Part shown: in pieces, positions 1,360-61,339 of the stretch
Layout: every line of letters begins with the position of its first letter
Numbering within the stretch: position 1 is the first letter of the stretch
From: a candidate division WOR-3 bacterium
GTDB lineage: Bacteria; Hydrothermota; UBA3073; JACQXS01; JAGMCI01
NCBI GenBank assembly: GCA_023129325.1
Contig: JAGMCI010000012.1
Coordinates: 37,850 to 101,849 of the forward strand
Direction: 5' to 3'
DNA length: 64,000 nt
Notes under the pieces: model-generated
Seen by the model: only the letters and a program-made list of their open reading frames with translations
Database searches by the model: none
Told to the model about the DNA's origin: nothing
Translations under genes and position numbers: made by a program

Positions 1360-2943
1360 ATGAAATGTTCTAAGTGTGGAAAAAATTTGCCAGAGGATGT
1401 TAAATATTGTGTTTATTGTGGTAAAGCCATACTTATGGAATGTCCGGGATGTGGCAAAACTATTCTAACTGATAGTGAGGTTTGTAAATTTTGTCAGCTT
1501 AATCTTACAGATTATAAAAAGGTCATCCAGCTCTTAAAATCCGGCAAGGAACTTGAATCCGCCTCAGGCGGATTCAAATATGAGGAAGCGAGAAAGATTT
1601 ATGAACGCGCTGCAAAATTAGGAGTAGCAAAAAATAAGGTATTTAAATTACTGAACGGAGCAACTCAAAAGCTCAGGATAATCAAAGCCAAGAAATTTGA
1701 TGCAGAGAATTTTTTAAGAGTCCGAAAATTAGGCTTAGCAAAAGAGTCTTTTCTTGAAGTTCAAAAACTGCTTCCCAAGGATGAGGAGATTGCTTTGAAA
1801 TTAGAACTTATTGAGTCCAGGATTAGAAGCAGGGCTATAAAAATAAGATGGGCAGTTATAATTATAATTCTTCTTGCAATAGGCGTGGGTTTTTATTCTT
1901 ATACAAATAGTCTCACATATTTAGCAAAGAGGGGACTTAAATCTCTTTTAAGAAGTGAAGAAACTGACATAAGACATTCAGCTATTTTGGTATTAGGTGA
2001 ACATGGTGAGCGAGCTGCCCGTCCATGGCTCGAAATGCTTGCAAATAGTGAGAATGAGCAAAAGAGAGTTTGTGCGCTCGTCAGTCTTTTAAACTTTGGC
2101 GAGACTGAAGCCTTACCTATTTTACTTGAAATAATGCGTAAAGGCAGTATTCAGGCAAGCATTGGAGCTGCGTGGGCTTTAGCGGCTACTATGGATAGAA
2201 CAATTGCTCCAGAGCTTGGTGTTTACTTGAAAGGGAAGAACGATGCCCTTAAAATATCATCTGCGACTATATTACTAAATCTTGGCTATTCCTCGGGCAT
2301 AGGGGTAATAGAAAAATCTTTAGAAAACAAAAAAACAGCAACACGATTTGAAGGATTATATGCTCTCTATTTACTTGGAAGCAAAGAAGCCCTTCAATTA
2401 TTTATACCCCAAGAGTCCGACTTACTCAGAAATTTACTTGAAGACCCAAATGACGAGATTAGGCTCCTTTCTGCACTTCTATTAAATCAATTTGAACCTA
2501 ACTTAGCTAAAGAAGACTCAGTTGCTATAGCACAGATATTATGGGGAGAATTTGCCAAGAGGGAGTATTCTGCAACGGAGATGGAAGAAATTTCTACCAC
2601 ACATCCATTTTATATTGCTAAAGAGATAATTAAAGACAAAGGTGATGAATCCATAATGGAATTCAGTCCTTCGGCAAGAGAAATAAGAAAAAGATGCATT
2701 GAGGATTTATCCAAAATTGAACTTGGAGACGAATCGGTCAGGAAAGAGCTTGAAAAATCATTAACTTCATCTGCCTCAGACGGAGATAAATATGAACGTC
2801 TTGAGGCAGCTTTGGTGTTATTCAAGTTTGACAAAAAAAGAGCTACCAGAGTTTTAAAAGAATTGATAAAGGATAAAGATGAACTCTTAAAATTAAACAC
2901 TTGTAAATTAACCCTTATGCTTAAGCAAATACTTCAAATATGA
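1360..2943 (+). CDS. Membrane protein with an N-terminal double zinc ribbon, one TM helix and C-terminal HEAT (PBS-lyase-like) repeats.
   Basis: Two CxxC pairs occur twice in the first 50 aa. Hydrophobic stretch WAVIIIILLAIGVGF. Repeated ...A(A/I)..LG..G...A.P.L...L.. HEAT-like units. RBS aggggg 8 nt upstream of the ATG. Confidence 0.6.
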   Translation: MKCSKCGKNLPEDVKYCVYCGKAILMECPGCGKTILTDSEVCKFCQLNLTDYKKVIQLLKSGKELESASGGFKYEEARKIYERAAKLGVAKNKVFKLLNGATQKLRIIKAKKFDAENFLRVRKLGLAKESFLEVQKLLPKDEEIALKLELIESRIRSRAIKIRWAVIIIILLAIGVGFYSYTNSLTYLAKRGLKSLLRSEETDIRHSAILVLGEHGERAARPWLEMLANSENEQKRVCALVSLLNFGETEALPILLEIMRKGSIQASIGAAWALAATMDRTIAPELGVYLKGKNDALKISSATILLNLGYSSGIGVIEKSLENKKTATRFEGLYALYLLGSKEALQLFIPQESDLLRNLLEDPNDEIRLLSALLLNQFEPNLAKEDSVAIAQILWGEFAKREYSATEMEEISTTHPFYIAKEIIKDKGDESIMEFSPSAREIRKRCIEDLSKIELGDESVRKELEKSLTSSASDGDKYERLEAALVLFKFDKKRATRVLKELIKDKDELLKLNTCKLTLMLKQILQI

Positions 2944-5900
2944 ATATGAAACAGGGTTTACTTAAACATCAACCGCACCTGCCCGACATCCTGCAGGCGG
3001 GGATGAACGCAGACACTAATTTAGACTACAGACTGAAGACTATAGACCAAAGACTGATAAAGAGAGGTCTTTTGTCTTTGGTCTTATGTCTCTATCCGTG
3101 GTTTTTAATGGCTCAAAACTTGCAAGTAAATCTATATTCAGGAAATTACAAGATTCAAGAACTGAAAGATAGTGAGCACCAGATACTTATGGAAAACCTG
3201 CCCGACGGTAAGGCGAGTGGGTTTGTGAACTCTTTAATTCCTGGCAAACCGATACTTCCAGCCAAAACATATATGATTGTTATACCACCAGGAGTAGAAA
3301 TTCAAAGAGTAGATATTCAGGGCAGGAAGGTTGAGCTACCAGGGAAATATAATATTAAACTATCTCCACCTATTTTCCCAATAATAAGTGGTGATGCAAT
3401 AGCAAGCTATTGCACTCCGGGAGTGCGTTATTTATATCCAAAAGAAGCAGGCAAATACATTGGAAGAGGTGGTTTAAGAAAATATGAGTTCATAAAAGTA
3501 GTTTTCTTTCCTTTTACCTATTGCCCCGAGACACGGAAATTATTTTATACCTCCACCATAACAGTATCTATAGATTATACTCCAGGAAGTGGAAAGTGGG
3601 AAGTGGGAAGCCTGCCTGCCCCGCTCCGACAAGCGAAGCGGGACGGAGACGGCAAGGCAGGTGGGAAGTGGGAGGATATTGCAAGGGATTTGCTTATAAA
3701 TTATAATGAAGCTCAAAAATGGTATAAACCTTTTGTTGAAGCAGAGGCTTCAACCTACCCTAATTATGATTATGTAATTATTACCACTCCTTTTTGCACT
3801 ACTGCTATTGACACTCTTATAAAATGGAAAAAAAGAATGGGTTATAAGACAAAAGTTGTTACCAAAGACTGGATAGATATCAGTTATCTTGGTAACGACA
3901 TACAACAGAAAATAAGGAATTTTTTGCGAGATAAATATCTTGATTGGGGGATAGAATATGTGCTTATAGTTGGTGATACTATAATCCCAATGCGAACATG
4001 CGTAACATTTAATAATGCACACGGTCCAGGAGGCTGGCCGCCTGGATGGTATACTATACCGACAGACTTATACTATGCAGAACTTACTTATCCTGATAGC
4101 TTATCGTGGAATCTTGACGGAGATAATTATTATGGTGAGGTATGGGAATGGGCAGGGGATACAATCATTCCTGAGGGTGATGATGCTCCTGATTATGTCA
4201 CAGATGTCAGACTTGGCAGGATTCCCTGGAGTGACCCGGCGAAAATCCGTCACATATGTGAAAAAATAGTTTCCTTTGAGCAAAATACAGACCCTTCTTA
4301 TAAAAAAGCCTCACTCCTTGCTGGAGGTATGATATTTTACGAAAACGAGGATAATTACTATCATAAATATGATGGTGCAGATATTATGGAAGCATTGATA
4401 GACAGTGGTATTGTAGAGCCATCGCTTGCTGTTACTTTGTATGAGAAAGCAGGTCTTAGACCAAGTTTATACCCATGCACAGCTCCTATTACAATGGATA
4501 ATATAATAAATTACTGGAATAATCGTGCCATCTTTTATGAATTTAACCATGGAGGAGTAGACAAATTTTTTAGTAGAATCTGGGCATCGGACGATGGCGA
4601 CAGTATTCCAGAATCAAGTGAAATAACAAGAAACTATTTACTATACTCCAGCTCTGCGCCACAACTTGATGATACTCATCCAGCAGTTGGATTCTTGATG
4701 TCATGCGATTGCGGGAAACCTGAGGATGGTAATAACCTTGGAGCTGCACTTTTAGAGAATGGGAGTGTAAGCATAGGAGCAGCAACACGGGCAGCATGGA
4801 CTTCTGGAGAGTGGATGGTATATTATTTTTTTAAAAACCTTTTAAGAGACACAAGCTTAACAGGTAGTAAAGTGGGAGATGCGTTTGATATGGCAAGAAT
4901 TGAATATATGCAACTTAACCCCTGGTGGCTTAATACCTATACTATCAATCTTTATGGTGAACCATCATTGAACCATTTTGGTATTACACTGAAACCTAAA
5001 CTTACAGTATTTCCTGATACACTCAATTTTGAAATCACTATGACAGAGAACAGGAAACAGAGAGCTGATTCAATATACTACCACTCAATCTACCAAGATT
5101 TAGATTGTTACTCCTACCAGTATGATAAAGCTAAAATTGCTACTCGTTTTACCCCTCTTCAAAATCCATGCTGGGTAACTGGGTGCGAAATATTTGTTAT
5201 GCCAAAAGATACAATGCCATCGATTCCAGATACTGTCTTTTTGTATGGTGCGGATAATGATACTACGCCTGGAGAAATTCTCTCCACCAAAACATGGAGC
5301 GCCCCAATTTATGCTCCTGATTTCTGGACAATAACCGTTTCTTTTGATTCCTCTTCCCTGCCCGACGGACGGCAGGCGGGTATGATAAGAAGTGGCGATT
5401 TCTGGATTGGATACAACAGTATCACTGATGGGATTAATAATATCTGTGTATGCTCTGATATGACAATTGATAGTAGTGGACAAAATAGAAATAGGTATAC
5501 CTTTGACGAGACCTGGGCTGGTATTGACTATGACTGGGGCATCACAGCATTTGTTGATTACAGAATACCTGAAGATACCGCCATATTGTGGATTAAAAAT
5601 GATGGAAATGATATTTTAAATGTCTCAAGCATTAATCCCGCACCATATGGTGCGGGACAAGACTGGGTTGTATCTATAACACCAATTTCATTCCAAGTAT
5701 CTAAAAAAGATTCTGAGGCAGTTACTGTAATTGTCAGTTCTAAAGGACTCGGCAAGGGTATCTATCATGACTCACTTAAGATTATCTCCAATGATTCTGA
5801 TAAAAATCCATATTATGAGCCTGTAAAGTTTGTAATTACTGATAGTCAAATTACACCCCCGCAGGTGTCTCAATTGCTTGATTCAATAATCCCAAACCCT

Positions 5901-6143
5901 ATTCAGCCTGGGAGCCAAATTATATATTGGCTTCCAAAATCAAGCTGGGTCACACTGAAAATCTATGACTCAATTGGCAGACTGGTGCGAGTTTTAATAG
6001 ATGAGTATGAACAAGTCGGACGGCATACTATTTCGTGGGATATGAGAAATTCATACGGCACCCGGCTCCCAAGCGGCGTTTATTTTTATAAATTAAAAAC
6101 ACTTAATAAAAGCTTAACAAAAAAACTTATTTTAATTCGTTAG
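2940..6143 (+). CDS. Peptidase C25 (gingipain-like cysteine protease) with propeptide domain and T9SS C-terminal sorting domain. It carries in-frame GC-rich repeat insertions. The true start is uncertain; the signal-like segment LLSLVLCLYPWFLMA lies ~40 aa in.
   Basis: Catalytic-domain region YDYVIITT...YVLIVGDTIIPMRTC. Paralogous to 53954-57532. C-terminus IYDSIGRLVRVLIDE...GVYFYKLKT is a Por_Secre_tail-type CTD. Repeat insertions lie at 2976-3003, 3585-3678, 3735-3760 and 5356-5380. Confidence 0.75.
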   Translation: MNMKQGLLKHQPHLPDILQAGMNADTNLDYRLKTIDQRLIKRGLLSLVLCLYPWFLMAQNLQVNLYSGNYKIQELKDSEHQILMENLPDGKASGFVNSLIPGKPILPAKTYMIVIPPGVEIQRVDIQGRKVELPGKYNIKLSPPIFPIISGDAIASYCTPGVRYLYPKEAGKYIGRGGLRKYEFIKVVFFPFTYCPETRKLFYTSTITVSIDYTPGSGKWEVGSLPAPLRQAKRDGDGKAGGKWEDIARDLLINYNEAQKWYKPFVEAEASTYPNYDYVIITTPFCTTAIDTLIKWKKRMGYKTKVVTKDWIDISYLGNDIQQKIRNFLRDKYLDWGIEYVLIVGDTIIPMRTCVTFNNAHGPGGWPPGWYTIPTDLYYAELTYPDSLSWNLDGDNYYGEVWEWAGDTIIPEGDDAPDYVTDVRLGRIPWSDPAKIRHICEKIVSFEQNTDPSYKKASLLAGGMIFYENEDNYYHKYDGADIMEALIDSGIVEPSLAVTLYEKAGLRPSLYPCTAPITMDNIINYWNNRAIFYEFNHGGVDKFFSRIWASDDGDSIPESSEITRNYLLYSSSAPQLDDTHPAVGFLMSCDCGKPEDGNNLGAALLENGSVSIGAATRAAWTSGEWMVYYFFKNLLRDTSLTGSKVGDAFDMARIEYMQLNPWWLNTYTINLYGEPSLNHFGITLKPKLTVFPDTLNFEITMTENRKQRADSIYYHSIYQDLDCYSYQYDKAKIATRFTPLQNPCWVTGCEIFVMPKDTMPSIPDTVFLYGADNDTTPGEILSTKTWSAPIYAPDFWTITVSFDSSSLPDGRQAGMIRSGDFWIGYNSITDGINNICVCSDMTIDSSGQNRNRYTFDETWAGIDYDWGITAFVDYRIPEDTAILWIKNDGNDILNVSSINPAPYGAGQDWVVSITPISFQVSKKDSEAVTVIVSSKGLGKGIYHDSLKIISNDSDKNPYYEPVKFVITDSQITPPQVSQLLDSIIPNPIQPGSQIIYWLPKSSWVTLKIYDSIGRLVRVLIDEYEQVGRHTISWDMRNSYGTRLPSGVYFYKLKTLNKSLTKKLILIR
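3585..3678 (+). repeat. Family A element inserted in-frame in the C25 peptidase, flanked by GTGGGAAGTGGGA direct repeats.
   Basis: …ggaagtggaaagtgggaagtgggaag-[51-bp element]-gtgggaagtgggagg… The reading frame is kept open and encodes SGKWEVGSLPAPLRQAKRDGDGKAGGKWE. Confidence 0.85.
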
Positions 6144-6155
6144 TTAACGAGCCCT

Positions 6156-7412
6156 TTGATGAAAAGAAACATAGAAAGACACGCCTGCCTGACGGCAAGG
6201 CAGGGATATAGGCACGGAAAGATACACCCGCCTGCCCGCTTCGCCTGCCTCGCCCACGAGTCAAGGCGGGCCAAAGCTTCAGCGAGGCGAGCCATCTGTC
6301 GGGTAGGGAAATTTAATTCCTATCTTATTTTCTGGTCCATACGGATATTGGGAGTAATATTTTTAATCTTTCCTATCCGGATTTATGGAAATGAAAAACC
6401 CGATACTTCTTTATGGCACAAGTACGAAATTTTACCTAAAAAGGGATTGTTCAAAATAAAGAGAGAGTATTCATTTCCACTTCACGATATTCTTGGCAAG
6501 GAAAAAATTTATGCCCGATGCATTGCAGCTGCACCAATAGGAGGATTAAGAGAAGAAATTCAAATTTCACTTGTGAAAATCCCTTTAAAGAAAAAGATTA
6601 TCTTCCCTCTTGCTTTTGAAGAACTTCCTATTTCTGAATTGCAAAGAGAAAAGGAGCTTGAAATTTCAAAATCCGTAATTGAGGAGCAACAAGAACTCCC
6701 AAAACCAATAAAAATTGAAATTACACCGTTGGAAATAGAGAGACCTATAATTGCAGAAATCTCTCCACCAGCGAAAATAGAAACCAAGAAGATAAAAATA
6801 ACTGCTATTAAAGCCCTTGGAGTAATCAAAGAAGAAAGCTCAATTCCCCTTTTGAGAGAAGCTTTAAAAGAAAAAGAATGGAGTATAAAGCGTGAGGCTG
6901 CCGGGGCTTTAGCAGAACTTGGCGATACGATAGGACTTTCTTTTCTCAGGACAGCTCTTGAAGAGAAAGAAACAGCCAAGAAACTTGAAATCATAAGTAC
7001 TCTTGGAAGGATAGGAGATATTGCTTCAGTTCCGTTTTTAAGAAAATTGTTAGACCATAAGGAGTGGGCAGTAAGACGGGAAGCGGCTTTTGCCCTCTCG
7101 AAAATAGGAGACAAGACTGGTCTTTCATTCTTGCAAAGAGCAGTTGGTTCAGAAGACTCTAACAAAAAGATTGAGGCGGCGATGGCATTGGCAGAAATAG
7201 GAGATGACACTGGACTCCCGGAATTAATCTGTCAACTGACAGACAAGGATAGTCATACATCTGTGAGAATCGCGGCTCTTAAATCCATTGGAAAAGTAGG
7301 AAAAAAGAATATCATTCCTGTATTAAATGAGATAATGAAAAAAGACCCTGAACTCATAGTTAGAATTATAGCTTCAGAAAGTATATTAAAGATTAATAAA
7401 AGGAGGAAATAA
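6156..7412 (+). CDS. HEAT-repeat membrane protein, paralogue of the two flanking genes but without a zinc ribbon. The annotated 5' ~150 nt are a GC-rich repeat element, so the start is uncertain.
   Basis: TM-like ILGVIFLIFPI. C-terminal ~200 aa are tandem HEAT units (ALGVIKEESSIPLLREALKEKEWSIKREAAGALAELGD...). The first 50 codons translate the repeat element at 6183-6309. Confidence 0.55.
   Translation: MMKRNIERHACLTARQGYRHGKIHPPARFACLAHESRRAKASARRAICRVGKFNSYLIFWSIRILGVIFLIFPIRIYGNEKPDTSLWHKYEILPKKGLFKIKREYSFPLHDILGKEKIYARCIAAAPIGGLREEIQISLVKIPLKKKIIFPLAFEELPISELQREKELEISKSVIEEQQELPKPIKIEITPLEIERPIIAEISPPAKIETKKIKITAIKALGVIKEESSIPLLREALKEKEWSIKREAAGALAELGDTIGLSFLRTALEEKETAKKLEIISTLGRIGDIASVPFLRKLLDHKEWAVRREAAFALSKIGDKTGLSFLQRAVGSEDSNKKIEAAMALAEIGDDTGLPELICQLTDKDSHTSVRIAALKSIGKVGKKNIIPVLNEIMKKDPELIVRIIASESILKINKRRK
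6183..6309 (+). repeat. GC-rich element, family B, long form ~125 bp.
   Basis: The reverse complement of its 3' half matches 8214-8270 almost exactly (CCCTRCCCGACWGATGGCTCGCCTCGCTGAAGCTTTGGC…GGCGGG). A partial relative lies at 37544-37614. Confidence 0.8.
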
Positions 7413-8212
7413 TGAAATGTCCTTATTGTAAACACGAGATAGCCAATGATTGGTTATATTGTGGCAATTGTGGCATAAATATTAAAAAAGAAAATCAAGC
7501 AAAAAAAATCATCCAGTCGGGACTTGAATTTGAACATCAATTTGAGTATACAAAAGCTTCAAACGAATACAAAAAAGCACTTGAACTCGGTGTCCCTGAC
7601 AAAGAGATTCTTGAACTTCTTGAAAAAGTCACAAGGAAAGAACAAGCTATTATAAATTGGATGGAAAAAGGGAAGGAGTTCTTATCAAGTCGTGAATGGA
7701 AAGAAGCAATCCGAGCTTACGAAAATGTATTGAAACTAAAGCCCGTGGATGGTTATGTTAAAACAAATTTATTGCTTGCCAAAAGAAACCTTGCCCGTTC
7801 ACATAAACGTATCGGGATACGGATAACAGTTATTGTGATAATTATAGGTATAGGAACCTTTGGCTGGTATAGTTATACGCAAACTCCAAAACAAGTTGCT
7901 CAAAAGACATTGAAGCAAGGAGTTTTATCTCAAGACCTTCTTGCCAAACAATACGCAATTGAAGCTCTGGGCGGACTCAAGGACAAAAGATTTTTCCCTC
8001 TTTTGAAAGATGCTTTAAAGGATAAAAATCCTGCCATAAGAACTACTACAGCTAAAGCTCTTGGAGAATTTGGTGATTCTGCAGCTATTCCATTTTTAAA
8101 GGAGAGTTTATTTGATAAAGAATGGCAGGTAAGATATGCGGCAGCTCAGTCTTTGGCATTAATGGGGGACACTTCTGGAATCCAACTTTTAAAACAGGCA
8201 TTGAAAAGGTAA
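7412..8212 (+). CDS. Zinc-ribbon/TPR-like/TM/HEAT-repeat membrane protein.
   Basis: MKCPYCKHEI...YCGNCG zinc ribbon. TM segment ITVIVIIIGIGTFGWYSYT. Three HEAT units. The segment following its TM matches that of 1360-2943 (FYSYTNS / WYSYTQT), indicating paralogy. Confidence 0.6.
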   Translation: MKCPYCKHEIANDWLYCGNCGINIKKENQAKKIIQSGLEFEHQFEYTKASNEYKKALELGVPDKEILELLEKVTRKEQAIINWMEKGKEFLSSREWKEAIRAYENVLKLKPVDGYVKTNLLLAKRNLARSHKRIGIRITVIVIIIGIGTFGWYSYTQTPKQVAQKTLKQGVLSQDLLAKQYAIEALGGLKDKRFFPLLKDALKDKNPAIRTTTAKALGEFGDSAAIPFLKESLFDKEWQVRYAAAQSLALMGDTSGIQLLKQALKR

Positions 8213-9391: not shown

Positions 9392-10606
9392 TCATTTAAC
9401 TTTTATCTCTGCCTCTCCTGCATGCCGTATGGCAAAAACAGTAGCTAATGGTCCTATTATTTCATTTACCGCTATTGAAGCTAAAATAATATTTATCATC
9501 ATATCACCATATACTTTAAAGCCTGGATTTTCATAAGCAATAAGAACAAGCCCAATAGCCACACCTGCCTGGGGTAAGAGAGTAAGCCCAAGATATTTTT
9601 TTACTGCCACAGGTGCACCTGAGACAACGCCTCCAATAGAAGCTCCAGCAATCTTACCTACAGCTCTGGCAACTATAAATACCAGCCCTAAAAGTCCGAC
9701 CTTAATGAGTGTTCCTACTCTCAAATAAGTCCCTGAAAGAGCAAAAAAGGCAGCATAAAGTGGAGGCGTAAAATTATCTAAAACTGATATAAAACGCTGG
9801 TCTCTTTTTAAGCCATTTATAATTATAAAACCACTCACCATATTTGCAAGTAAGAGAGATAATTTTAAAAAAATAGCAATCCCACTTACAACACAAATTA
9901 TTCCTAAACTCATTATCAAAAATCCTGCCGCTGAACGTATATATCCTGATATAAGTCTCAACAGAAAACCAAAAGCTATTCCTAAAGCTAATGAACCCAC
10001 AATCTCAATAAAAGGAATACTGATTGCCTTTAAATGAGTTAAACTCCCTGAAGTAGATGAGAGAGCTGTGGCATTACATATTCCAAAGATAATAATAGCT
10101 AATGCATCATCAAGAGCCACTACTGCCAGAGCTGTGGTAGTCAAGGGTCCTTTTGCTTTTAATTCATTCATAACTGCAAGAGTCGCGGCTGGAGCAGTAG
10201 CAGTCCCTATTGCACCCATAACAAGAGCAAATGGAAGTATTGAGCCTTGAAAATTGACAATTTTTGATATATATGGAGAGAGTAAAAGGATACTGAAGGT
10301 AACAAAGACAAAGGCGCCAATCCCTTGAAGTAGAGTTATTAACAAAACATTTTTACCAAGTTTTCCAATCCTTTTTATGTCCAGGCTCCCTCCAATCGCA
10401 AAAGCAATAACTCCTAAAGCAATGTCCACAACCCAATTAAGTTCTTCTTCTAAAATTATCTTCGGAATAAGGTGAAAGCAGGATGGCCCAATTAAAATCC
10501 CAGCAATAATGTAGCCTGTGACTTCAGGAATCTTGACTTTTCTTGCTAATCTACCACCTAAATATCCAACTACAAGAAGTATGCCTATGGCGAAAACAAT
10601 GCTCAA
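9392..10606 (-). CDS. Cation:proton antiporter (Na+/H+ exchanger, CPA family).
   Basis: ~11-12 hydrophobic segments. N-terminal GYLGGRLARKVKIPEVTGYIIAGILIGP is characteristic of Na_H_exchanger family proteins. The start overlaps the purF stop (ATGA). Confidence 0.75.
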   Translation of the reverse strand: MSIVFAIGILLVVGYLGGRLARKVKIPEVTGYIIAGILIGPSCFHLIPKIILEEELNWVVDIALGVIAFAIGGSLDIKRIGKLGKNVLLITLLQGIGAFVFVTFSILLLSPYISKIVNFQGSILPFALVMGAIGTATAPAATLAVMNELKAKGPLTTTALAVVALDDALAIIIFGICNATALSSTSGSLTHLKAISIPFIEIVGSLALGIAFGFLLRLISGYIRSAAGFLIMSLGIICVVSGIAIFLKLSLLLANMVSGFIIINGLKRDQRFISVLDNFTPPLYAAFFALSGTYLRVGTLIKVGLLGLVFIVARAVGKIAGASIGGVVSGAPVAVKKYLGLTLLPQAGVAIGLVLIAYENPGFKVYGDMMINIILASIAVNEIIGPLATVFAIRHAGEAEIKVK

Positions 10607-12135
10607 CTCAGTCGTATCCTTTCCTTCTCAATTCTCTTTATTTCTTTAACTGGGATTTGGGTTGGATAATTACCCGTGAAACAGGCAGTGCAATAAGAAT
10701 TTTTTGCACTTCTGACTTCTGTATCACCAACAGCCCTTAACATACCTTCAAGAGATTGATAAATGAGTTCATCAACCCCAATTTGTGCCTTTATTTCAGA
10801 AATGCTCTTTTCTCGGGCTATAAAGTCTTGCTTCGTTTGCATATCAATCCCATAGAAACAAGGATATTTAAGGGGTGGACAGGATGAAATAAAATATATC
10901 TTCTTGGCACCCGCCTTCCTCACTAAAGATGTGATGGCTTTGGATGTGGTGCCACGAACAATAGAATCGTCTACTAATAATACCTTCTTTCCCTGTATTT
11001 CTTGTTTTACAGGATTAAGTTTGTACCTTACATATTCTAATCTCCTTTCGTCCCTTGGCATTATAAAAGTCCTGGCTACATACCTATTTTTTATAAGGCC
11101 CTCCCTGTAAGGAACACCAAGAGTATTGGCTAAAGATAAAGCAGTTGCCCTGGCTGTATCTGGCACAGGAATTACAACATCCGGTTTAAGACCAGACTTT
11201 TTTATCTTCTTAGCAAGCTCTTCGCCAAGTCTTAATCTGGTCTCATATACAGATACATTGTCAAGAACAGAATCAGGCCTTGCAAAATAAATATATTCAA
11301 AAATGCAATGCCTTGGACTCGGTGGCTTAATAACTTTTGAAATGACTTTCCCTTTAAGGTCTATAAGTATTGCCTCACCTGGATTTACATCCCTGATTTC
11401 ATCATAGCCAAGAGTGTCAAGAGCAACTGATTCAGATGCAAAACAAAAATTATTAAATTTGGACCCCTCAGCTGGGTAGGTTGAAAGGGACCCCCCAGTT
11501 GGGTAGGTTGAAGCCTCTGCTTCAACCTTGCATCCAAATTTTAAAGGCTTTATACCATGAGGGTCTCTAAAAGCAAGAAGTCCAATATTGGCAATGAAAG
11601 AGATGCAGGAATAACTTCCAGTTACTCTTTCCATCACTCTTTTAACAGCTTCAAAAACAGGTTTTTCCCCACCTATGGATGGAGCCCACATATTGGTCTC
11701 AAGTTCAGAAGCGAGAACATTTAAGATAATCTCAACATCACTTTTCGTATTTATGTGGCGATGTCGCTTATTCACAAGCCATTTCCTTAAACTCTCATAA
11801 TTTATGACATTCCCATTATGAGCTATGGCTATGCCAAAAGGAGTATTTGTATAAAAAGGTTGCGCATCCTCAGGGTCCCCAGCTCCAATTGTCGGATACC
11901 GAACATGACCAATCCCGATTGAACCCTTAAGTCGAGTCAGGTCTTGCGGATTAAAAAGGCTCTGGACAGTCCCTTTGCCTTTTTTTAAATAAAATCTACC
12001 ATCCTTATTCGCAGAATGCTGTGCATAAGTTATAATTCCAGCCGCATCCTGCCCCCTATGCTGTATAGCAATCAGCCCAAGCCAGAGCTTGGAAGCTACA
12101 TCACGCTCGCCAAATATCCCAATAACACCACACAT
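10603..12135 (-). CDS. purF: Amidophosphoribosyltransferase (glutamine PRPP amidotransferase). It contains an in-frame repeat insertion at 11470-11527.
   Basis: N-terminal MCGVIGIFG (Ntn cysteine). PRTase motif VLLVDDSIVRGTT. A C-terminal CxxC cluster is present. The inserted segment KVEAEASTYPTGGSLSTYPAEGS is encoded by a duplicated repeat element. Confidence 0.9.
   Translation of the reverse strand: MCGVIGIFGERDVASKLWLGLIAIQHRGQDAAGIITYAQHSANKDGRFYLKKGKGTVQSLFNPQDLTRLKGSIGIGHVRYPTIGAGDPEDAQPFYTNTPFGIAIAHNGNVINYESLRKWLVNKRHRHINTKSDVEIILNVLASELETNMWAPSIGGEKPVFEAVKRVMERVTGSYSCISFIANIGLLAFRDPHGIKPLKFGCKVEAEASTYPTGGSLSTYPAEGSKFNNFCFASESVALDTLGYDEIRDVNPGEAILIDLKGKVISKVIKPPSPRHCIFEYIYFARPDSVLDNVSVYETRLRLGEELAKKIKKSGLKPDVVIPVPDTARATALSLANTLGVPYREGLIKNRYVARTFIMPRDERRLEYVRYKLNPVKQEIQGKKVLLVDDSIVRGTTSKAITSLVRKAGAKKIYFISSCPPLKYPCFYGIDMQTKQDFIAREKSISEIKAQIGVDELIYQSLEGMLRAVGDTEVRSAKNSYCTACFTGNYPTQIPVKEIKRIEKERIRLS
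11470..11527 (-). repeat. Family G hairpin element (GGGTAGGTTGAAGCCTCTGCTTCAAC), duplicated and in-frame in purF.
   Basis: Perfect 8-bp stem GTTGAAGC/GCTTCAAC. Other copies at 3735-3760 (in C25, encodes EAEASTYP) and 37713-37738 (intergenic). Confidence 0.8.
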
Positions 12136-12360: not shown

Positions 12361-12411
12361 CCCTGCCTGCCCCGCTCCGATAAGCGAAGCGGGACGGAGA
12401 CGGCAAGGCAG
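12361..12411 (+). repeat. Family A element, intergenic, in the divergent purF / DUF218 promoter region.
   Basis: Same 51-bp consensus. Confidence 0.85.
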
Positions 12412-12464
12412 GTGTGGTTGTTTTTCTTGACTTTTAGGAGTTGATGATGTAAATTACTAAAATA

Positions 12465-13112: not shown

Positions 13113-13223
13113 AGAGACCGCACTCTTTTTAATTTAAAGTATCTCACACGAGTCCGTGACTTTAAGGCTTTGGAATGGAGTTAAGAAGGTTTTTAAATTT
13201 TTTTTAAAAATTGCGAAAAAAAC

Positions 13224-13251
13224 TTGACATTAATAAAACTGATGATAAAGT
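13224..13251 (+). promoter_or_regulatory. Sigma70-type promoter (TTGACA-16-TAAAGT) with an A-rich upstream element, serving the three-gene cassette.
   Basis: aaaaaaacTTGACAttaataaaactgatgaTAAAGT. The same aaaaaacTTGACA architecture recurs at 15278, 52266, 57716, 61117, 38728 and 12427. Confidence 0.45.
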
Positions 13252-15190: not shown

Positions 15191-15419
15191 ACAAAAGTTA
15201 TCCTGAAACATTTTAACTTTTCTTTATTCTCACACAATCCAAAATTCAGCAGTTTTTATTAAATGTTGAAAAAAAACTTGACAAATAAAAAATTTGTGTT
15301 AAAATTACAAAAGGAGGTAATATAAGAGTCTTTTAAGGTATGTGAGTTTATGGAGTGCATTACCTTGGTAATGCAACTAAATTGACTTATATGCCTTATA
15401 AAGACTCTATTTTTATATT

Positions 15420-37035: not shown

Positions 37036-37683
37036 ATGAAAAACTATTTTGTTCATCCAACTGCTGTTGTTGAAAAAGGAGCTAAAATAGGTAAAGAAAC
37101 AAAAATTTGGCACTTCTCACACATAATGAAAGGAGCAAAAATTGGTAAAAATTGTTTGCTTGGTCAAAATTGCTTCGTTGCTAAAGATGCAATTCTTGGA
37201 AATGGGGTAAAGCTTGAAAACAATGTCTCTGTCTATACATTTGTGACCCTCGAAGATGATGTATTTGTTGGACCTTCAGCTGTATTTACAAATGATTTAA
37301 ACCCAAGAGCCCCTTATCCAAAAGGAGGAAAATGGATTGCTACTTATGTGCAAAAAGGAGTATCAATTGGAGCAAATGCGACCATTGTTTGTGGTATCAA
37401 TATAGGTAAATGGGCTTTCATAGGTGCTGGAGCAGTCGTGACAAAAAATATTCCTGATTATGCTATAGTTGCTGGTGTTCCCGCAAGAGTCATAGGCTGG
37501 ATGTGCGAATGTGGACAAAAACTTAAATTTAAGCCCTCCCGCCAGATGGCCCGCTTCGCCCTGTCTCGCCGAGCCAAGGCGGGCGGAGCTTCAGCAAAGC
37601 GAACAGGCGGGGAGGAAAAGGCAACTTGTCAAAAGTGCGGCAGAAAATACCATAAAGAAGGTCTTAAATGTAGTCTTATTTAA
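37036..37683 (+). CDS. Hexapeptide-repeat N-acetyltransferase (WbpD/PglD-like). Its C-terminal zinc ribbon is interrupted by a GC-rich element.
   Basis: Left-handed beta-helix hexapeptide repeats ([13 protein letters not shown]...). C-terminus reads CECG…[27 aa encoded by element 37544-37614]…CQKCG. Confidence 0.75.
37544..37614 (+). repeat. GC-rich element related to families B and C, inside the C-terminus of the acetyltransferase.
   Basis: CCCGCTTCGCC…CTGTCTCGCCGAGCCAAGGCGGGCGG…GCTTCAGC. Shares blocks with 6183-6309 and 40644-40674. Confidence 0.7.
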
Positions 37684-37995
37684 GCTATTTTTTATATATA
37701 GCTTTAATCATAGGGTAGGTTGAAACCTCTGCTTCAACTCTCATAATTTGTAATCTGTAATTCAGAATTTATAATTTTTAACTTCCTGCTTTCTACCTTC
37801 TGTGTTCTCCGCAAACTCTGCGGTTCAGGTCATCTTTGGAGTGCAAAAACGGTGCTCTTGTAAAAAGATTGTGGGCACGCCTGTCGTCAACAACGGGGAT
37901 TTCAAATCGTGCAAATGTAACAATGCTACAACCACAGACCTTGCCTTGCTAAAAATCAATGTAGGGCAAACCTTTAGGTTTGCGGAATGCAGACT

Positions 37996-40417: not shown

Positions 40418-41689
40418 ATGATAGGAATAATATTAGTATTTCTTGTCAGTGACACATTAAAAATAAACCTTGACCAAGCCAAGGAGATAGCACTTAAAGG
40501 TAACCCAACATATCAAGTGCAGACACTTTCTCATACATACAATAAATTAGGACTTTATGAGAACTTGGCTTCAGATATACTTAATCCAGCTGTCGGTATT
40601 ACATACTCTGAAGCAACATTTGGTGATTACTCTTATCCTTCGTCACCTGTCTCGCCGAGCCAAGGCGGGAAGGGCTATAATTTTAGCTTCTCTTTAAACC
40701 AGCCGGTATTTGATTTTGGGAAAGCATCCTCAATACTACAAAGCAAATTTAGCACCAATGCCTCTTTAGCATCAAGCTGGGAAGCTGAAAACCTGCTATA
40801 TTATCAAGTAGAAGGACAATATCTTACTGTCCTTAAAGTAGAAAAATTACTTGGAATGCGTAATAAGGCTATTGAACGAGCAGAAGAAAATATGAGATTC
40901 GTAACTAAAAGATTAGAATTGGGAAAGGCGTCAAGATTAGACTTTTTAAATGCAACAGTCTATCTTAATCGTGCTAAGCTTGATTTATCTGATACCCGTA
41001 AAAATTATACTATTGCTAAAAGATTATTATTAAATATACTTGGGCTTAGGCATCAATGTGAACTTTTGCTTGAACCAGTTGAGATTGAAGACGGAAAGTT
41101 TGAGTTACCAGAACTAAATATACTCATAACAACAAGCATTGAAAATAGACCAAAAATTAAAGCCGCTTATGAAGAAGTTAAAGAAGCACGACTTGGAGTT
41201 TGGAGCAGTTTCTTTTCATTTCTGCCCCAAATATCGTTCAAATGGTCCTGGAACTATAATACAGAGAATTTCCCAGACAAATTTTCAACAATAAGAAACG
41301 GGGCAACAAAGAACACAGGGTGGTATGCAACTGCGAATCTAAATTTATTTTCCTATCCATTTGAAGTTTGGAAGACAAAGACCATCCTTGACAAAACCAA
41401 TTTGAATCTGTTAAATGAAAGACTGATTGTAGTTAAAGAAGTTGAAGAGGCAAGGCTTGATTGTCTTACTATGAACGAAAATCTAAAACTTGCCAAAAGT
41501 ATGTTTGAAGCTGCCAGGGAGGGGAATGCACTCGCTAAAACACAGTACAAGCTCGGATTGATACCAATCCTTGACTTGTTTCAAATAGAAACAGACTTGT
41601 TGGACGCCGAGGCAACCTATATTTCTGCCCTGTATGATTATAAACTTGCAAGAACTAAACTCAAGTATGTAATTGGAGGTAAACTATAA
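40418..41689 (+). CDS. Outer-membrane efflux protein (TolC-like OMF). It has an in-frame GC-rich insertion at 40644-40674.
   Basis: Two OEP-type repeat halves with coiled-coil and beta segments. RBS aaggagg 7 nt upstream. The insertion encodes [11 protein letters not shown]. Confidence 0.7.
   Translation: MIGIILVFLVSDTLKINLDQAKEIALKGNPTYQVQTLSHTYNKLGLYENLASDILNPAVGITYSEATFGDYSYPSSPVSPSQGGKGYNFSFSLNQPVFDFGKASSILQSKFSTNASLASSWEAENLLYYQVEGQYLTVLKVEKLLGMRNKAIERAEENMRFVTKRLELGKASRLDFLNATVYLNRAKLDLSDTRKNYTIAKRLLLNILGLRHQCELLLEPVEIEDGKFELPELNILITTSIENRPKIKAAYEEVKEARLGVWSSFFSFLPQISFKWSWNYNTENFPDKFSTIRNGATKNTGWYATANLNLFSYPFEVWKTKTILDKTNLNLLNERLIVVKEVEEARLDCLTMNENLKLAKSMFEAAREGNALAKTQYKLGLIPILDLFQIETDLLDAEATYISALYDYKLARTKLKYVIGGKL
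40644..40674 (+). repeat. Family C element (CCTGTCTCGCC…CAAGGCGGG), in-frame in the TolC-like gene.
   Basis: Second copy at 58727-58756 in the BNR protein. Shares its core with 37561-37590. Confidence 0.7.
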
Positions 41690-52015: not shown

Positions 52016-52265
52016 ATACTATTTAATTTATAAATGTCAAGAAAAAACGCTTTTGGGTGCAAGATTTTGTTTATTTTAAGAAATGTTATATCCTATAAGT
52101 ATAGATATATCAATATCTTGTATCTCAAAGGAGGGTATTATAAATTTTGTTTTATGTGCTATGAAAGTATAAACTCTCCAGACTTGACCCCATTCATGGA
52201 ACCTGCTCTGGTTGATACTCTGTTGTTGTTTTTGTAGAAAACTTTTTAAAAAAACTTGACAAACT

Positions 52266-53860: not shown

Positions 53861-53953
53861 TTTAAACAACTAAACTTAAGTGTAAAATACTTATTGCCAA
53901 GCACTGTGGAAATCCAGAGTTGACAGTGTTTGGGGATAAGAAAGGAGGTTGAG

Positions 53954-56900
53954 ATGAGGAGGTTATTTTTGTTTATTGGAGTAGTTTCTTTTATAGGGAG
54001 TTCACTTTTATCGGCATTACCTATCGGTGTGATGGGCAAGCGCAATATGAAGACAGTAAAGAAGCTATCTATAGGGAAAGGTGGAATTATTGATTTAGAA
54101 GGTAAGGATATTATTTTAGGTCCAGAGAGTTTTGAGACTGCCGTGCCACCTACAGGATGGAGTCAGTTTTCATTTCCCTGGAACCGGTCATCTAACGAGT
54201 GGTTTAAAGTTGAAGACTCAGGCCATCAAGGCAGTTATGTTGCATGGATAGACTATGACGGAAGCTATGTTCAGGACCAACTGCTACAGACTCCGGCATT
54301 AAACTTCTCGAGTTATACCGGGTGCACACTTACATTCTATGCCTGGCAAGATAGCTGGTATGATGATTATCTCTGTATTGGTGTTGCAACTCAGGGTGGT
54401 GGAGCAGATGATCCAACTTGGACCGGTTTAGGATATCTTTATCAGAGTGGCTCCAACTGGGGTGGATGGTCGATAGACCTCTCTGTATATGATGGTCAGT
54501 CTAATGTAGTGATTGGGTTTGAGTATTACACTGACACACCAGACCAAAACAGCATAGGCATAGATTATGTAACTGTCACTGCGGCTGGTGGCGGTGGGCA
54601 GCCAAATCTCAAACCATACACACCCACTGGTTGGAGTGGTCCATTAGTTTGTTCTGTGAATAATGATACAATCTCTGAAGATACACTATATGCGGGTCAG
54701 GCTTATTATTTAAGTTTTGCAGTCAAGAATGATGGCGCGGCAGATATAACTGATACATTCGCTGTCTACATTACAAAAAATGATACTCCATATTTGGGTT
54801 GGAATATTCCGAGCTTGGTTCAAAATGGGGTGGTCAGGGGGATATGTATTCCCGATACTATATTTACTCCAGGAGAGTATAGTATGAAAGTCGTTGCCGA
54901 TGCTCTTAATAATATAACTGAATCAGACGAGACTGATAATGTATGGGGCAAGATTTTTTACTGGAAGACCGGCGGAACCCCTGATATCGCAGTTACTCCT
55001 GAGTCCTTGTACTATTACTACGAAACTTCTGAAAAGGTCAAAAAAGTTAGTGGCTACTGGGATGCAAGTGAGGTGTGTGTTACTGTGGACATACCAAATT
55101 TTACAGCAGAAGAAGCAGAAGACGGAACTCAAAGGATTAATATCCCTGGATTTGGGCACCTAAGTAGAGGTGGTGTTCCATATTTACCAGCAAAAGTATT
55201 TACCCTCGCCATACCACCTGGTGCAGTTGTAACATCCGTTGATGTAAAAGGAGCAATGTCTCTCCTGCCTGGCACTTATAACATTATGTCTGCACCACCA
55301 CTCCTTCCAATGAGCAACCGTTCTAAATTGACACACCAAATAATGGAACGATATGCAGAAACTAAAGAAAAAGTATATTCTGCTGATACGTTTTTCCCAG
55401 AAGTGCTTGGTAAATTTGACGGCACAGGTGGGCTACGGAAATACAACTTGGTGGATGTGAGTGTTTGCCCGTTTTCTTACAATCCGGTTGCAGGAGAATT
55501 ACGCTTTACAAGTTCCATTACAATTGATGTTTACTACACTTTAGATGATGACAAATTACAAGAAGCAAAAAAACTTGAGAGCGATAATTTGTTTGAAGGC
55601 GAAGCAAGTGAAATTATCTATAATTACGAAATGGCAAAGGAATGGTATAGTAATAATAAGAGCACCAAATCCCTTTACGATTATGTGATAATAACTACCT
55701 CAGCTTGTAGTAGTGCTGTTTCCAGTTTGGTTGATTGGAAGACCTCGCTGGGCTACAATGTGAAGATTGTTACCAAGTCAGAGATAAATAGCGGCTCCGG
55801 GATTGATTTCCAGCAGAAACTCAGAAACTTTTTGCGAGATAAGTATCCTCAAGGTCAATGGGGGATAGAGTATGTGCTCATTGTGGGTGAAGACGCTGAT
55901 ATTCCAATGAGGAGATGTGTTCCCTGGAATGATGACCCAGATAGTCCCTGGAATGATACACTTTTATCTCCTGTCCCAACAGACCTATATTATGCCGAAC
56001 TAACGGCTACTGATAATACTTCCTGGAACAAGGATGGAGATGATTATTATGGTGAAGCTGGCGATGGCTCTGGGGGGGCTGGTGATGACTCACCTGATTA
56101 CCATGCAGATGTCCACCTTGGGAGAATTCCCTGGAGTGATAATTCAAAAATCTCACATATCTGCCAGAAAATAGTTGCTTTTGAACAGAATACTGATATT
56201 TCCTACAAGAAGGCATCCTTACTTGGTGGTGCTATGTCTAACTACTACAACGAGAATGGGCAAGGAGCAGACAGGACTGATGGAGCCGAATTAATGGAAG
56301 ATTTGATGAATGATGGGATAATAGATAGCACAAAAGCAGTTACAGAATATGAGAAAGCCGGTGTAAACCCCTCTACTTATTCTTGTGATTATCCTATCAC
56401 TCAAACCAATCTTATAAATCAATGGCAGAACAAAGGTATATTCAATGAATGGGCTCATGGTTGGCTGGATTCCTTTGCAAGAAAAGTATGGGTAGAGGAT
56501 ACGAATGAGGATAATATTCCTCAAGATAATGAGATGGCGTGGTATAATGGGCTTAAATCGACTGACGCCCCAAGTCTGGACGATAACTATCCTGCAATTG
56601 GCTTTCTGTGTTCTTGCCTTTGCAGTTATCCAGAATATACCAATAATCTGGGAGCCGCTCTTCTCTATCAAGGTTCTGCAGGTATTGTATCGTCCACCCG
56701 TGAAAGTCTTTATCGGCCTGGCTGGAGTTCAGCAGCTGACGGAGGCAATGCAAGTGTAGATTACTACTTTTTTAAGAAATTACTCTCAGATACCAACAGC
56801 ACGCATGGAAGAGTTGGAGATGCTTTAGATGCAGCAAGAAATGAGTATGCAGGGCTTGATGTATGGGATTGGCCCTCTCGTTATGTAAATATATACGGCT

Positions 56901-57532
56901 TTATGCTCTATGGTGAGCCATCTCTGTGTCACTTCGGCCGCACTGGAGGAGCCTATCTGACAGAGAGTATGTGGGTATATAATCAGGGAGACGGGTTGCT
57001 GACTGTCTCTGGCATTACCAGTAAAGGAAAAAGCTGGATTATTGATATTAGTCCTTCATCGTTTAATGTTTCCCCTGGCGATTCTCAAAATGTTACAGTA
57101 TCTGTTAATGCTAAGGGATTAGCAGAGGGCACATATAGAGATACACTGAAGATTGCTTCTAATGACCCTGATGAGTCTTTATACAATGAGCTTGTGGTTC
57201 TTAAGGTTGTTATAACAGGTATTGAGGAGCACGAAATTGTTCCTGATAATAAGCCGATTTACCTTGTTTCTCAGGGCTGGCCTAATCCTTTTAGTACATA
57301 TACTAATATAAAGTTTGTAATCCCTATGCGAACTTGGACAACGCTTTCAATCTATGACATAAGTGGGAGATTGGTTAGAAAATTGATTGATAATAAATTA
57401 GATGCCAGAGACTGGACAGTAACTTGGGATGGCAGGAATAGCAAAGGAAGAAAGGTCTCTTCTGGTATTTATTTTGTCAAGCTTTCAACTGAAGATTATA
57501 AAGCAACAAGGAAACTAATTTTGTTGAAGTAG
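53954..57532 (+). CDS. Peptidase C25 (gingipain-like) with T9SS C-terminal sorting domain; paralogue of 2940-6143.
   Basis: RBS aaggagg 5 nt upstream. Signal peptide MRRLFLFIGVVSFIGSSLLSA. YDYVIITTSAC…YVLIVGEDADIPMRRC catalytic region aligns with the first C25 gene. CTD GWPNPFSTYTNIKF…LSIYDISGRLV…GIYFVKL. Confidence 0.75.
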   Translation: MRRLFLFIGVVSFIGSSLLSALPIGVMGKRNMKTVKKLSIGKGGIIDLEGKDIILGPESFETAVPPTGWSQFSFPWNRSSNEWFKVEDSGHQGSYVAWIDYDGSYVQDQLLQTPALNFSSYTGCTLTFYAWQDSWYDDYLCIGVATQGGGADDPTWTGLGYLYQSGSNWGGWSIDLSVYDGQSNVVIGFEYYTDTPDQNSIGIDYVTVTAAGGGGQPNLKPYTPTGWSGPLVCSVNNDTISEDTLYAGQAYYLSFAVKNDGAADITDTFAVYITKNDTPYLGWNIPSLVQNGVVRGICIPDTIFTPGEYSMKVVADALNNITESDETDNVWGKIFYWKTGGTPDIAVTPESLYYYYETSEKVKKVSGYWDASEVCVTVDIPNFTAEEAEDGTQRINIPGFGHLSRGGVPYLPAKVFTLAIPPGAVVTSVDVKGAMSLLPGTYNIMSAPPLLPMSNRSKLTHQIMERYAETKEKVYSADTFFPEVLGKFDGTGGLRKYNLVDVSVCPFSYNPVAGELRFTSSITIDVYYTLDDDKLQEAKKLESDNLFEGEASEIIYNYEMAKEWYSNNKSTKSLYDYVIITTSACSSAVSSLVDWKTSLGYNVKIVTKSEINSGSGIDFQQKLRNFLRDKYPQGQWGIEYVLIVGEDADIPMRRCVPWNDDPDSPWNDTLLSPVPTDLYYAELTATDNTSWNKDGDDYYGEAGDGSGGAGDDSPDYHADVHLGRIPWSDNSKISHICQKIVAFEQNTDISYKKASLLGGAMSNYYNENGQGADRTDGAELMEDLMNDGIIDSTKAVTEYEKAGVNPSTYSCDYPITQTNLINQWQNKGIFNEWAHGWLDSFARKVWVEDTNEDNIPQDNEMAWYNGLKSTDAPSLDDNYPAIGFLCSCLCSYPEYTNNLGAALLYQGSAGIVSSTRESLYRPGWSSAADGGNASVDYYFFKKLLSDTNSTHGRVGDALDAARNEYAGLDVWDWPSRYVNIYGFMLYGEPSLCHFGRTGGAYLTESMWVYNQGDGLLTVSGITSKGKSWIIDISPSSFNVSPGDSQNVTVSVNAKGLAEGTYRDTLKIASNDPDESLYNELVVLKVVITGIEEHEIVPDNKPIYLVSQGWPNPFSTYTNIKFVIPMRTWTTLSIYDISGRLVRKLIDNKLDARDWTVTWDGRNSKGRKVSSGIYFVKLSTEDYKATRKLILLK

Positions 57533-60942: not shown

Positions 60943-61016
60943 ATTCAAGAGTGCAGACTTCAGTCTGCCATTTCCTTGAGAGATAATGTAGGGGCAGGGT
61001 TTATCCCTGCCCAATA
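60943..61016 (+). terminator. Two consecutive stem-loops after the BNR T9SS gene (GCAGACTTCAGTCTGC and GGGGCAGGGTTTATCCCTGCCC).
   Basis: 7-bp and 9-bp GC-rich perfect stems. The second is followed by AATAAGATTTT. A near-identical GCAGACTTTAGTCTGC hairpin occurs at 37990-38006. Confidence 0.5.
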
Positions 61017-61215
61017 AGATTTTGTAGCCGTTCCGATGTATTGGTTCATTTAATGAATATTCTGTGTCTTTCTGTGTCTATTTTTCTCTGTGCCCTTCTG
61101 TGGTTGACTTTTTTGCTTGACAAATTGAGAACCTATTGTAAAATGGCATTGTGCAAAGAGCGTTGACTAAAGTTATAAAAGTGGAAAAAACCGTGAACCA
61201 AAAAGAGAAAGATTC

Positions 61216-61267
61216 TCCCGCCTGTCCGTCTCCGTCCCACTTCGCTTGTCGGAGCGGGGCGGGCAGG
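61216..61267 (-). repeat. Family A element, reverse orientation.
   Basis: The reverse complement matches the 51-bp consensus with 3-4 mismatches. Confidence 0.8.
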
Positions 61268-61339
61268 GAAATAGTTAAACTTAGGTGCAGGGTGAGGATA
61301 AAAGAAGCTGGTGCCTCCGGCTTTAAATTGCCCAAACAT

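Follow-up and report, generated by a model that had tools for sequence, protein, structure and literature searches.

A probable GTAG-type REP hairpin in-frame within purF and a C25 peptidase gene of a candidate division WOR-3 bacterium

A stretch of 64,000 nucleotides from a candidate division WOR-3 bacterium (contig JAGMCI010000012.1, assembly GCA_023129325.1; hereafter the window) contains a 26-nt hairpin sequence, GGGTAGGTTGAAGCCTCTGCTTCAAC, within the genes for amidophosphoribosyltransferase (purF) and a C25 peptidase, and a further copy between genes. We consider it highly probable that this 26-mer represents one unit of a repetitive extragenic palindrome (REP) of the GTAG type, linked to the REP-associated tyrosine transposases (RAYTs) and inserted in-frame in the two genes. 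On this reading the peptide common to PurF and the peptidase comes from a mobile REP hairpin and is no protein motif. RAYTs are HUH/Y1 enzymes that act on single-stranded DNA, and the GTAG head of a REP is their recognition motif.

The hairpin unit in the window

The anatomy of the element can be read directly from the DNA. The 26-mer occurs exactly at 3735-3760 (minus strand) and 11501-11526 (plus strand), and with one mismatch at 37713-37738 (plus strand), so that the three copies reported in the initial annotation of the window are all present, two of them exact and the intergenic one altered. No occurrence is expected by chance in the window (100 dinucleotide-preserving shuffles), the G+C content of which is 36%. 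As single-stranded DNA the unit consists of an unpaired GGGTAG followed by an 8-bp stem and a 4-nt loop, and the fold (-7.8 kcal/mol, z = -4.6) bears out the perfect 8-bp stem that had been proposed. The sequence around the three copies diverges exactly at the edges of the 26-mer.

The copies are spaced 7.7 and 26 kb apart in mixed orientation, and all three are singlets, or half-elements, with no doublet among them. Two lie in-frame in genes and one lies between genes; these positions confirm the suggested dispersed hairpin element with copies within and outside genes, and the unit is accordingly not confined to extragenic DNA as the name REP would require. Translated directly, three of its six frames are stop-free (VEAEASTYP, LKQRLQPT and GRLKPLLQ), and the frame giving VEAEASTYP is the one used by both intragenic copies. 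A CRISPR repeat was ruled out, as neither the repeat scan of the window nor locus L008 from a related genome showed an array, and the copies are far apart in mixed orientation.

Insertion in purF

The purF gene (10603..12135, minus strand) encodes a protein of 510 residues with Pfam GATase_6/7 and Pribosyltran domains and matches to PurF structures in the PDB (E = 1e-127), and an identical protein is annotated as PurF in a candidate division WOR-3 metagenome-assembled genome (MAG). The reading frame is intact, and alignment with 19 relatives shows that PurF keeps its catalytic N-terminal Cys and all columns that are invariant in them. The gene holds a complete REP singlet at 11501..11526 (plus strand; exact match, fold -7.8 kcal/mol), made up of the GGGTAG head and a GTTGAAGC-CTCT-GCTTCAAC hairpin, and a 10-bp inverted repeat (11505-11514/11519-11528) spans this hairpin. 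On the minus strand the singlet reads VEAEASTYP within the PurF peptide KVEAEASTYPTGGSLSTYPAEGS. This peptide and its counterpart in the C25 peptidase, VEAEASTYPNYDY, are those that had been claimed for the insert.

The whole 26-bp unit was also thought to be duplicated in purF. Tandem Repeats Finder reports a 27-bp tandem duplication at 11461..11512 (plus strand; period 27, 1.9 copies, 92% matches), in which the 25-nt units at 11461-11485 and 11488-11512 are identical at 23 of 25 positions. The first of these units contains a partial second REP head consisting of the first 12 bases only (GGGTAGGTTGAA, 11474..11485, plus strand), and the 27-bp repeat also takes in non-REP sequence and a codon of the host gene, GGA (Ser, read as TCC on the coding strand). 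What recurs is thus the first 12 bases of the unit within a longer tandem repeat, and not the unit as a whole.

The position of the insertion was observed directly. Alignment with relatives delimits an insert of 69 nt (11464..11532, minus strand) corresponding to residues 202-224, CKVEAEASTYPTGGSLSTYPAEG. This 23-residue segment is missing from all 19 aligned relatives, which in this alignment are 55-73% identical to the window protein, and E. coli PurF shows a gap of 18 residues at that position. The 119 other listed PurF homologues are all shorter (405-501 residues, compared with 510), and the closest of the other PurF proteins in the database shares 67% identity. The gap in the 19 relatives and in E. 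coli PurF upholds the proposal that the segment is an insertion; relatives sharing it, which would have spoken against an insertion, were looked for and none carries it.

In the AlphaFold2 model of PurF (mean predicted local distance difference test score, pLDDT, 81.7) residues 206-225 form a coil with pLDDT < 50, and since this coil is placed between strands at 199-203 and 229-233 the insert is predicted to extend a beta-hairpin turn. The model therefore fits the surface-loop position that had been anticipated. The insert is lineage-specific and, in the predicted structure, lies in a disordered loop.

A perfect 9-bp inverted repeat brackets the purF insert with exactly 69 nt between its arms. 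One arm, AAATTTGGA (11455..11463, plus strand, 9 nt), is 100% complementary to the other, TCCAAATTT (11533..11541, plus strand), which encodes Lys199-Phe200-Gly201 on the coding strand, and KFG is conserved in relatives. Taking the 69 nt out of the gene leaves an 18-bp palindrome, AAATTTGGATCCAAATTT, that encodes KFGSKF and has the insert at its exact centre, and this palindrome would be the ancestral site of the insertion. Palindromic targets as a general rule were rejected, as the inverted-repeat length in the flanks of 23 doublets from related genomes was 1.57, compared with 1.84 in shuffles, and the purF site is a single case.

Because the 27-nt tandem repeat takes in a host codon, we infer from the sequence a two-step history for purF, in which a 42-nt insertion (10 nt of filler, 26 nt of REP and 6 nt of filler) would have been followed by a 27-nt duplication. 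Both of these steps preserve the reading frame. The 10- and 6-nt filler has no match in any fetched locus or other copy of the repeat, and its sole hit in a metagenome scan, on a high-GC contig with no hairpin after it, was taken as chance. Other PurF relatives (P0003, P0004 and P0086) have lineage-specific inserts of their own elsewhere in the protein, for example 'SVGEPVPPDNPMQPIEELSGELF' in P0003, and these may be further repeat insertions.

C25 peptidase and intergenic copies

The C25 peptidase gene (2940..6143, plus strand) encodes 1067 residues with Pfam Peptidase_C25 and Por_Secre_tail domains, the latter a type IX secretion sorting tail. Its complete REP singlet (3735..3760, minus strand; exact match) encodes VEAEASTYP in a linker directly before the catalytic domain (YDYVIITT), the Peptidase_C25 domain being matched from residue 278. 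Comparison with a C25 paralogue in the window (53930..57532, 45% identical) gives S----NNKSTKSLYDYVIITT versus KPFVEAEASTYPNYDYVIITT, a linker longer by 4 residues. The segment is plausibly an insertion in a variable linker, and it is not cleanly delimited. Of the insertion proposed for this gene, the reversed 26-mer and its reading as VEAEASTYP therefore stand, and a clean insertion is not demonstrated, as the paralogue shows a variable linker only. The gene also carries several other GC-rich repeats.

The intergenic singlet (37713..37738, plus strand) lies 30 nt past the stop codon of a hexapeptide-transferase gene (37036..37683), and a role as a terminator had been suggested for it. One G-to-A change breaks a stem pair of this copy (-3.1 kcal/mol, z = -1.3), its tail, TCTCATAATTTG, has no T-run, and a terminator scan of 37400-38100 found no terminator-like site. 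An intrinsic terminator at 37713-37738 was ruled out on these three grounds. Overall, the initial annotation was largely right about insertion; on duplication, on a role as terminator and on the identity of the element it was incorrect or incomplete.

Related repeats in other genomes

A scan of species-representative genomes with the pattern GTAGGTTGAARCNNNNGYTTCAAC yielded 46 loci, which place the unit in a repeat family found mostly in Candidatus Stahlbacteria, WOR-3 and sister MAGs, with a few loci in Hydromicrobium, Paceibacterota and Dehalococcoidia-labelled bins. The highest number of matching loci in a single related, incomplete MAG was 10-11. The usual form in relatives is a REPIN-like inverted doublet of 55-56 nt with two GGGTAG-headed hairpins, laid out as GGGTAG, GTTGAAGC-loop-GCTTCAAC, 1-3 nt, GATGAGAGC-loop-GCTCTCATC and TACCC, and the stems of its two hairpins differ from each other. 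In all, 23 doublets of 54-59 nt were delimited, with sharp element boundaries at GGGTAG and CTACCC; one doublet has a fold energy of -21.3 kcal/mol (z = -7.1).

Covariation was examined in a set comprising every GGGTAG-N6-GC-N4-GC-N6 sequence in the fetched DNA, with no requirement for pairing in the outer stem. This set yielded 35 distinct sequences (78 occurrences), in each of which at least five of the six outer positions pair. Across the alignment of the 35 units 98.2% of cells are paired and six of the eight pairs show changes in both partners, in 70 cells altogether; covariation scores 0.618, compared with 0.212 in shuffles, none of 500 shuffles reaches the observed value, and pairing in slid controls is 30-42%. 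GGGTAG is invariant in 35 of 35 units, although it was also the criterion by which they were collected, and it marks the sharp outer edge of every copy. Conservation of the hairpin concerns its structure, not its sequence, and the conserved features, a head and a structure, match the published definition of a REP.

The copies in relatives lie mostly in short open stretches and are therefore mostly intergenic. Long open reading frames (ORFs) of relatives hold copies in all three stop-free frames, with Pfam-confirmed hosts for two of the frames. These hosts include a pyridine-nucleotide disulphide oxidoreductase (Pyr_redox_2, L001), a radical SAM/SPASM protein (L031) and RecG (L032), and a SurA-like peptidyl-prolyl isomerase, also confirmed by Pfam, hosts an in-frame copy at the same site in two MAGs (L016, L026). 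At orthologous REP sites in sister MAGs (L018 and L020; also L016 and L026) the loop variants differ (GCCTCTGC versus GCCCTCGC), which points to copies having been replaced or converted by one another rather than to vertical descent alone.

RAYT genes in related lineages

The co-occurrence of the repeat with RAYT genes in relatives was likewise observed directly. A regular expression for HUH...Y found no RAYT in the window or the 46 REP loci, and tblastn of the same DNA with an E. coli YafM sequence and then 10 RAYT proteins found a sole RAYT, in the Stahlbacteria locus L042. This RAYT-like gene is frameshifted and contains a complete doublet in-frame. With the doublet removed and the frameshift repaired, its sequence scores 80.9 bits over the full length of the NCBIfam model REP_Tyr_transpos (NF047646), for which the cutoff is 80 bits. 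The Stahlbacteria MAG JACQXS has REP copies together with two RAYT genes (L042, L047).

Searches for homologues gave 13, then 112 relatives, and an exhaustive search gave 6354 matches at E < 1e-3. Six intact homologues score 85.2-106.5 bits on REP_Tyr_transpos and 20-34 bits on the IS200 model, the cutoff of which is 55 bits. The sole PDB match of the RAYT homologues is E. coli TnpArep (4ER8, E = 8.7e-5), and the HxH (HUH) and YIHNNP catalytic-tyrosine motifs are visible in them.

An intact RAYT, P0124, holds a doublet (L048 3300-3355) whose left half is the exact 26-mer of the window; it is read as GRLKPLLQPDESRGSHLP directly before the conserved IWQKGFYD strand. GGGTAG-headed hairpins are present in-frame within the coding sequence (CDS) of all nine RAYT genes read as DNA (L042, L047, L048 and L052-L057), always mid-gene and just before the IWQxGFYD strand. 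Besides that of L048, the internal hairpins lie at L042 3949-4004 (numbered along the minus strand), L052 10360-10418, L053 10297-10360, L054 ~4296-4360, L055 ~6401, L056 197 and L057 516-570. Their stems vary by lineage and stay self-complementary, as in L053 (GCGAAAGC and GTGCGAGC) compared with L048 (GTTGAAGC and ATGAGAGC). REPs of the same super-family also occur outside the RAYT genes, ~50-350 nt away, in four of the loci: ~200 nt upstream in L052, on both sides in L054, upstream in L055 and downstream in L056. The fetched loci L047, L048 and L053 have no external GGGTAG-headed hairpin.

The distance from the HUH motif to WQxxFYD is 43-47 residues in plain RAYTs and 57-158 in many members of this clade, several of which have internal repeats in this stretch. 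Peptide motifs such as GRxxPxLxP...SHLP and MLQPT recur there in many clade members, and reading of the sequences places the SHLP and QPT codons across the CTACCC tail.

The RAYT genes of L054 (3964-4632) and L055 (6074-6649), on two Dehalococcoidia-like contigs, adjoin a carbamoyl-phosphate synthase large-subunit gene, those of another lineage sit after STAS/anti-sigma kinase genes, and L048, L053 and L057 share neighbours. The RAYT genes appear single and syntenic, not mobile. The conserved neighbours of L054/L055 and of L048/L053/L057 suggest vertical inheritance, and the conserved positions are consistent with a vertically inherited domesticated transposase. The RAYT genes P0300 and P0126, which have the REP closest to that of the window, were traced to samples other than the source sample.

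We propose tentatively that a RAYT clade spanning Patescibacteria, Dehalococcoidia, Stahlbacteria/WOR-3 and an unplaced lineage keeps its cognate REP or REPIN in-frame in its own CDS, in the linker between HUH and IWQxGFYD. A single gene would then carry both enzyme and substrate through inheritance, and possibly through transfer, the stems would co-evolve with the enzyme, and the inserts in purF and the C25 peptidase gene would represent spill-over into a compact genome with little intergenic space. RAYT genes holding REPs mid-CDS may be new; a limited check of the literature did not find the mid-gene in-frame arrangement. If confirmed, RAYTs with REPs in their own frame bear on the long-term association of REPINs and RAYTs, and a RAYT with an internal REP, being enzyme and substrate in one gene, offers a simple test system.

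Proposed mechanism and alternatives

For the window itself we infer mobilisation by a RAYT encoded elsewhere in the genome, which would cut and paste, or copy, GTAG-headed hairpins. Insertions into genes would mostly be lost, and the survivors would be frame-keeping insertions in tolerant loops or linkers, which would give rise to short extra peptides. The unit has three stop-free frames, and therefore frame-keeping insertions can survive as peptides. In purF the 42-nt insertion would have entered a beta-hairpin loop that was later enlarged by the 27-nt tandem duplication.

Several points weigh against this account. There is no RAYT gene within the 64-kb window, the part of the source genome that was searched (tblastn, 10 RAYT queries), and a cognate enzyme in the source organism is hypothetical. 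The window has singlets only, and the REPIN model treats singlets as decayed or immobile remnants. The 26 nt of the unit are not a multiple of three and none of the other copies has a match to the additional 10 and 6 nt seen in purF, so the chemistry of insertion is not explained. An empty-site allele from a close strain was found for none of the three copies, and the ~10 exact-pattern matches per related MAG are low compared with classical REP families (> 100). To our knowledge, transposition of a REP by a RAYT has never been directly shown for this clade.

One alternative is a miniature inverted-repeat element with GGGTAG...CTACCC termini, moved by another transposase, with the RAYT co-occurrence being coincidental; the 6-bp terminal inverted repeats of the doublets and their constant length (55-56 nt) would suit such an element. 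The window, which has no RAYT, would agree with this. We nevertheless regard it as unlikely, as a co-varying hairpin behind a GTAG head is the signature of a REP, nine of nine RAYT genes of the clade carry or adjoin these hairpins, and the stems change with the RAYT lineage; no other transposase was seen beside the copies in the loci, in a search for one that was not exhaustive. It is less probable again that the hairpin is a host regulatory element (for example a terminator, a stabiliser of mRNA or a binding site for a protein) that owes its spread or retention to its usefulness and is present in coding sequence only incidentally. REPs described in the literature frequently lie downstream of genes and are able to influence the fate of mRNA (PMC3733652), and the intergenic copy lies just past a stop codon, but that copy has a broken stem, no T-run and no terminator-like site, two of the three window copies are within a CDS, and no Rfam family matched anywhere in the window at gathering thresholds. 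A host function would in any case concern what the hairpin does and not where it came from, and is compatible with its identity as a REP.

Both intragenic copies in the window give the same nine residues in the same frame, which would be expected if VEAEASTYP were a functional peptide module selected at the protein level and spread by recombination, with the DNA hairpin as a by-product. This explanation is very improbable given that the same DNA also occurs between genes, that the two other frames used in relatives produce unrelated peptides, that the DNA is identical at 26 of 26 positions between unrelated host genes, and that the stem co-varies at the DNA level while the encoded peptides change; the PurF segment is, in addition, modelled as disordered. 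The least probable explanation is that the insert is a metagenome assembly or chimera artefact at a repeat. The source is indeed a MAG and repeats can mislead assemblers, but the frame of 510 codons stays open through the insert, and comparable in-frame copies are found in several independent MAGs, including the orthologous pair L016/L026. The same PurF is also present on contigs of two assemblies, a 374,764-bp ENA scaffold (ERZ23498859, SAMN18200504) and a Logan contig, for which separate reads are not established.

Relation to known systems

In published REPs a palindrome with an unpaired middle follows a GT(A/G)G head, as in Coxiella GTAGGTTGGGC... (Nunvar 2010, PMC2817692). In several species, REPs of the GTAG and CGTC types lie within coding regions, frequently in dimeric form and then encoding 20-30 residues (Di Nocera 2013, PMC3733652). 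Intragenic GTAG REPs are a documented minority (PMC3733652), and therefore the insertions in the window, a hairpin repeat inserted in-frame in conserved genes, belong to a kind that is already known. In-frame REP insertions in conserved enzymes are on record from Rickettsia, Opitutus and Thauera.

The repeat described here shares with the GTAG REP/REPIN and RAYT systems (PMC2817692; Bertels and Rainey 2011, PMC3116915; PMC3733652) a GT(A/G)G head, a short palindrome with compensatory stem changes, inverted doublets, which are common there and occur here in relatives, dispersed copies, RAYTs in the same lineages, and occasional in-frame intragenic copies of ~9-30 residues. It differs from them in its hosts, which are uncultured WOR-3, Stahlbacteria, Patescibacteria and Dehalococcoidia and not Proteobacteria, in apparently low copy numbers, in having two of the three window copies within genes, and in the differing stems of the doublets. 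In the published layout REPs flank the RAYT genes and sometimes overlap the gene end (PMC2817692; PMC3733652), whereas the RAYTs of this clade carry REPs in-frame mid-CDS.

The Rickettsia palindromic elements (RPEs) behave in a similar way, as palindromic in-frame inserts in conserved genes of an AT-rich genome, at presumably tolerant surface positions, with the genes apparently intact. Lineage and sequence differ, and the likeness is one of behaviour alone. RPE-1 is much longer (~100-150 bp). RPE-4 and RPE-6 have been classed among the GTAG/CGTC REP repeats, and RPEs are found in-frame in functional genes (PMC3733652).

In the IS200/IS605 family, TnpA Y1 transposases act on subterminal hairpins in single-stranded DNA. 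The RAYT homologues resemble these enzymes in their HUH and YIHNNP motifs, their weak matches to the IS200 model and their predicted recognition of DNA hairpins, and differ from them in scores that lie far under the IS200 cutoff and above the RAYT cutoff.

These observations extend REP/RAYT systems to candidate phyla for which no description was found in the searchable literature. A search combining REP/RAYT terms with Patescibacteria returned no paper in that literature, and among papers on WOR-3 and palindromic repeats none concerned REP elements, as judged by title and abstract. The purF copy also provides a clean example of insertion in a central enzyme of purine synthesis, which is useful for studying the tolerance of loops to insertions.

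Other repeats in the window

A separate 53-nt GC-rich repeat, CCTGCCTGCCCCGCTCCGACAAGCGAAGCGGGACGGAGACGGCAAGGCAGG, has four copies (1199-1251, 3611-3663, 12362-12414 and 61217-61269), one of them in the C25 peptidase gene ~70 nt upstream of the REP, one in the ORF 61151..62413 and two intergenic, including one ~230 nt upstream of purF. GC-rich units of 24 nt (CCTGCCCGAC...GGCGGG) are present at 2978-3001, 5357-5380, 20766-20789 and 30610-30633, with further sites of the same family at 3197-3221, 6178-6206, 30152-30198 and 58732-58758. They are nearly always within long ORFs, among them those of the C25 peptidase, a UDP-glucose dehydrogenase and a glycosyltransferase, and 29 of the 36 GC-rich islands in the window are inside long ORFs. 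Several families of repeats seem to be tolerated within the genes of this genome. GC-rich repeats containing GGGCAGG were considered as REPs with a variant head and were set apart, as the motif lies at their outer edge with no hairpin after it.

The hexapeptide-transferase gene upstream of the intergenic REP has a GC-rich stretch near its C-terminus (37530-37601), the core of which, CCTGTCTCGCCGAGCCAAGGCGGG, recurs at 40644-40677 in an outer-membrane efflux protein gene (40418..41689) and looks like another in-frame repeat. Two HEAT-repeat genes (6156..7412 and 7412..8212) are accompanied by a pair of 40-nt inverted repeats (6270-6309/8213-8252), 95% complementary and 1.9 kb apart; one arm falls inside the first gene, at its start, and the other directly after the second gene ends. 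An AT-rich motif with AAAAAAACTTGACA at its end is found at three intergenic sites (13199-13231, 15253-15285 and 52231-52263) and may represent a promoter -35 region common to them. The intergenic region before the ORF 61151..62413 contains a perfect GC-rich hairpin, GGGGCAGGGTTTATCCCTGCCCC (60992-61014, -10.7 kcal/mol).

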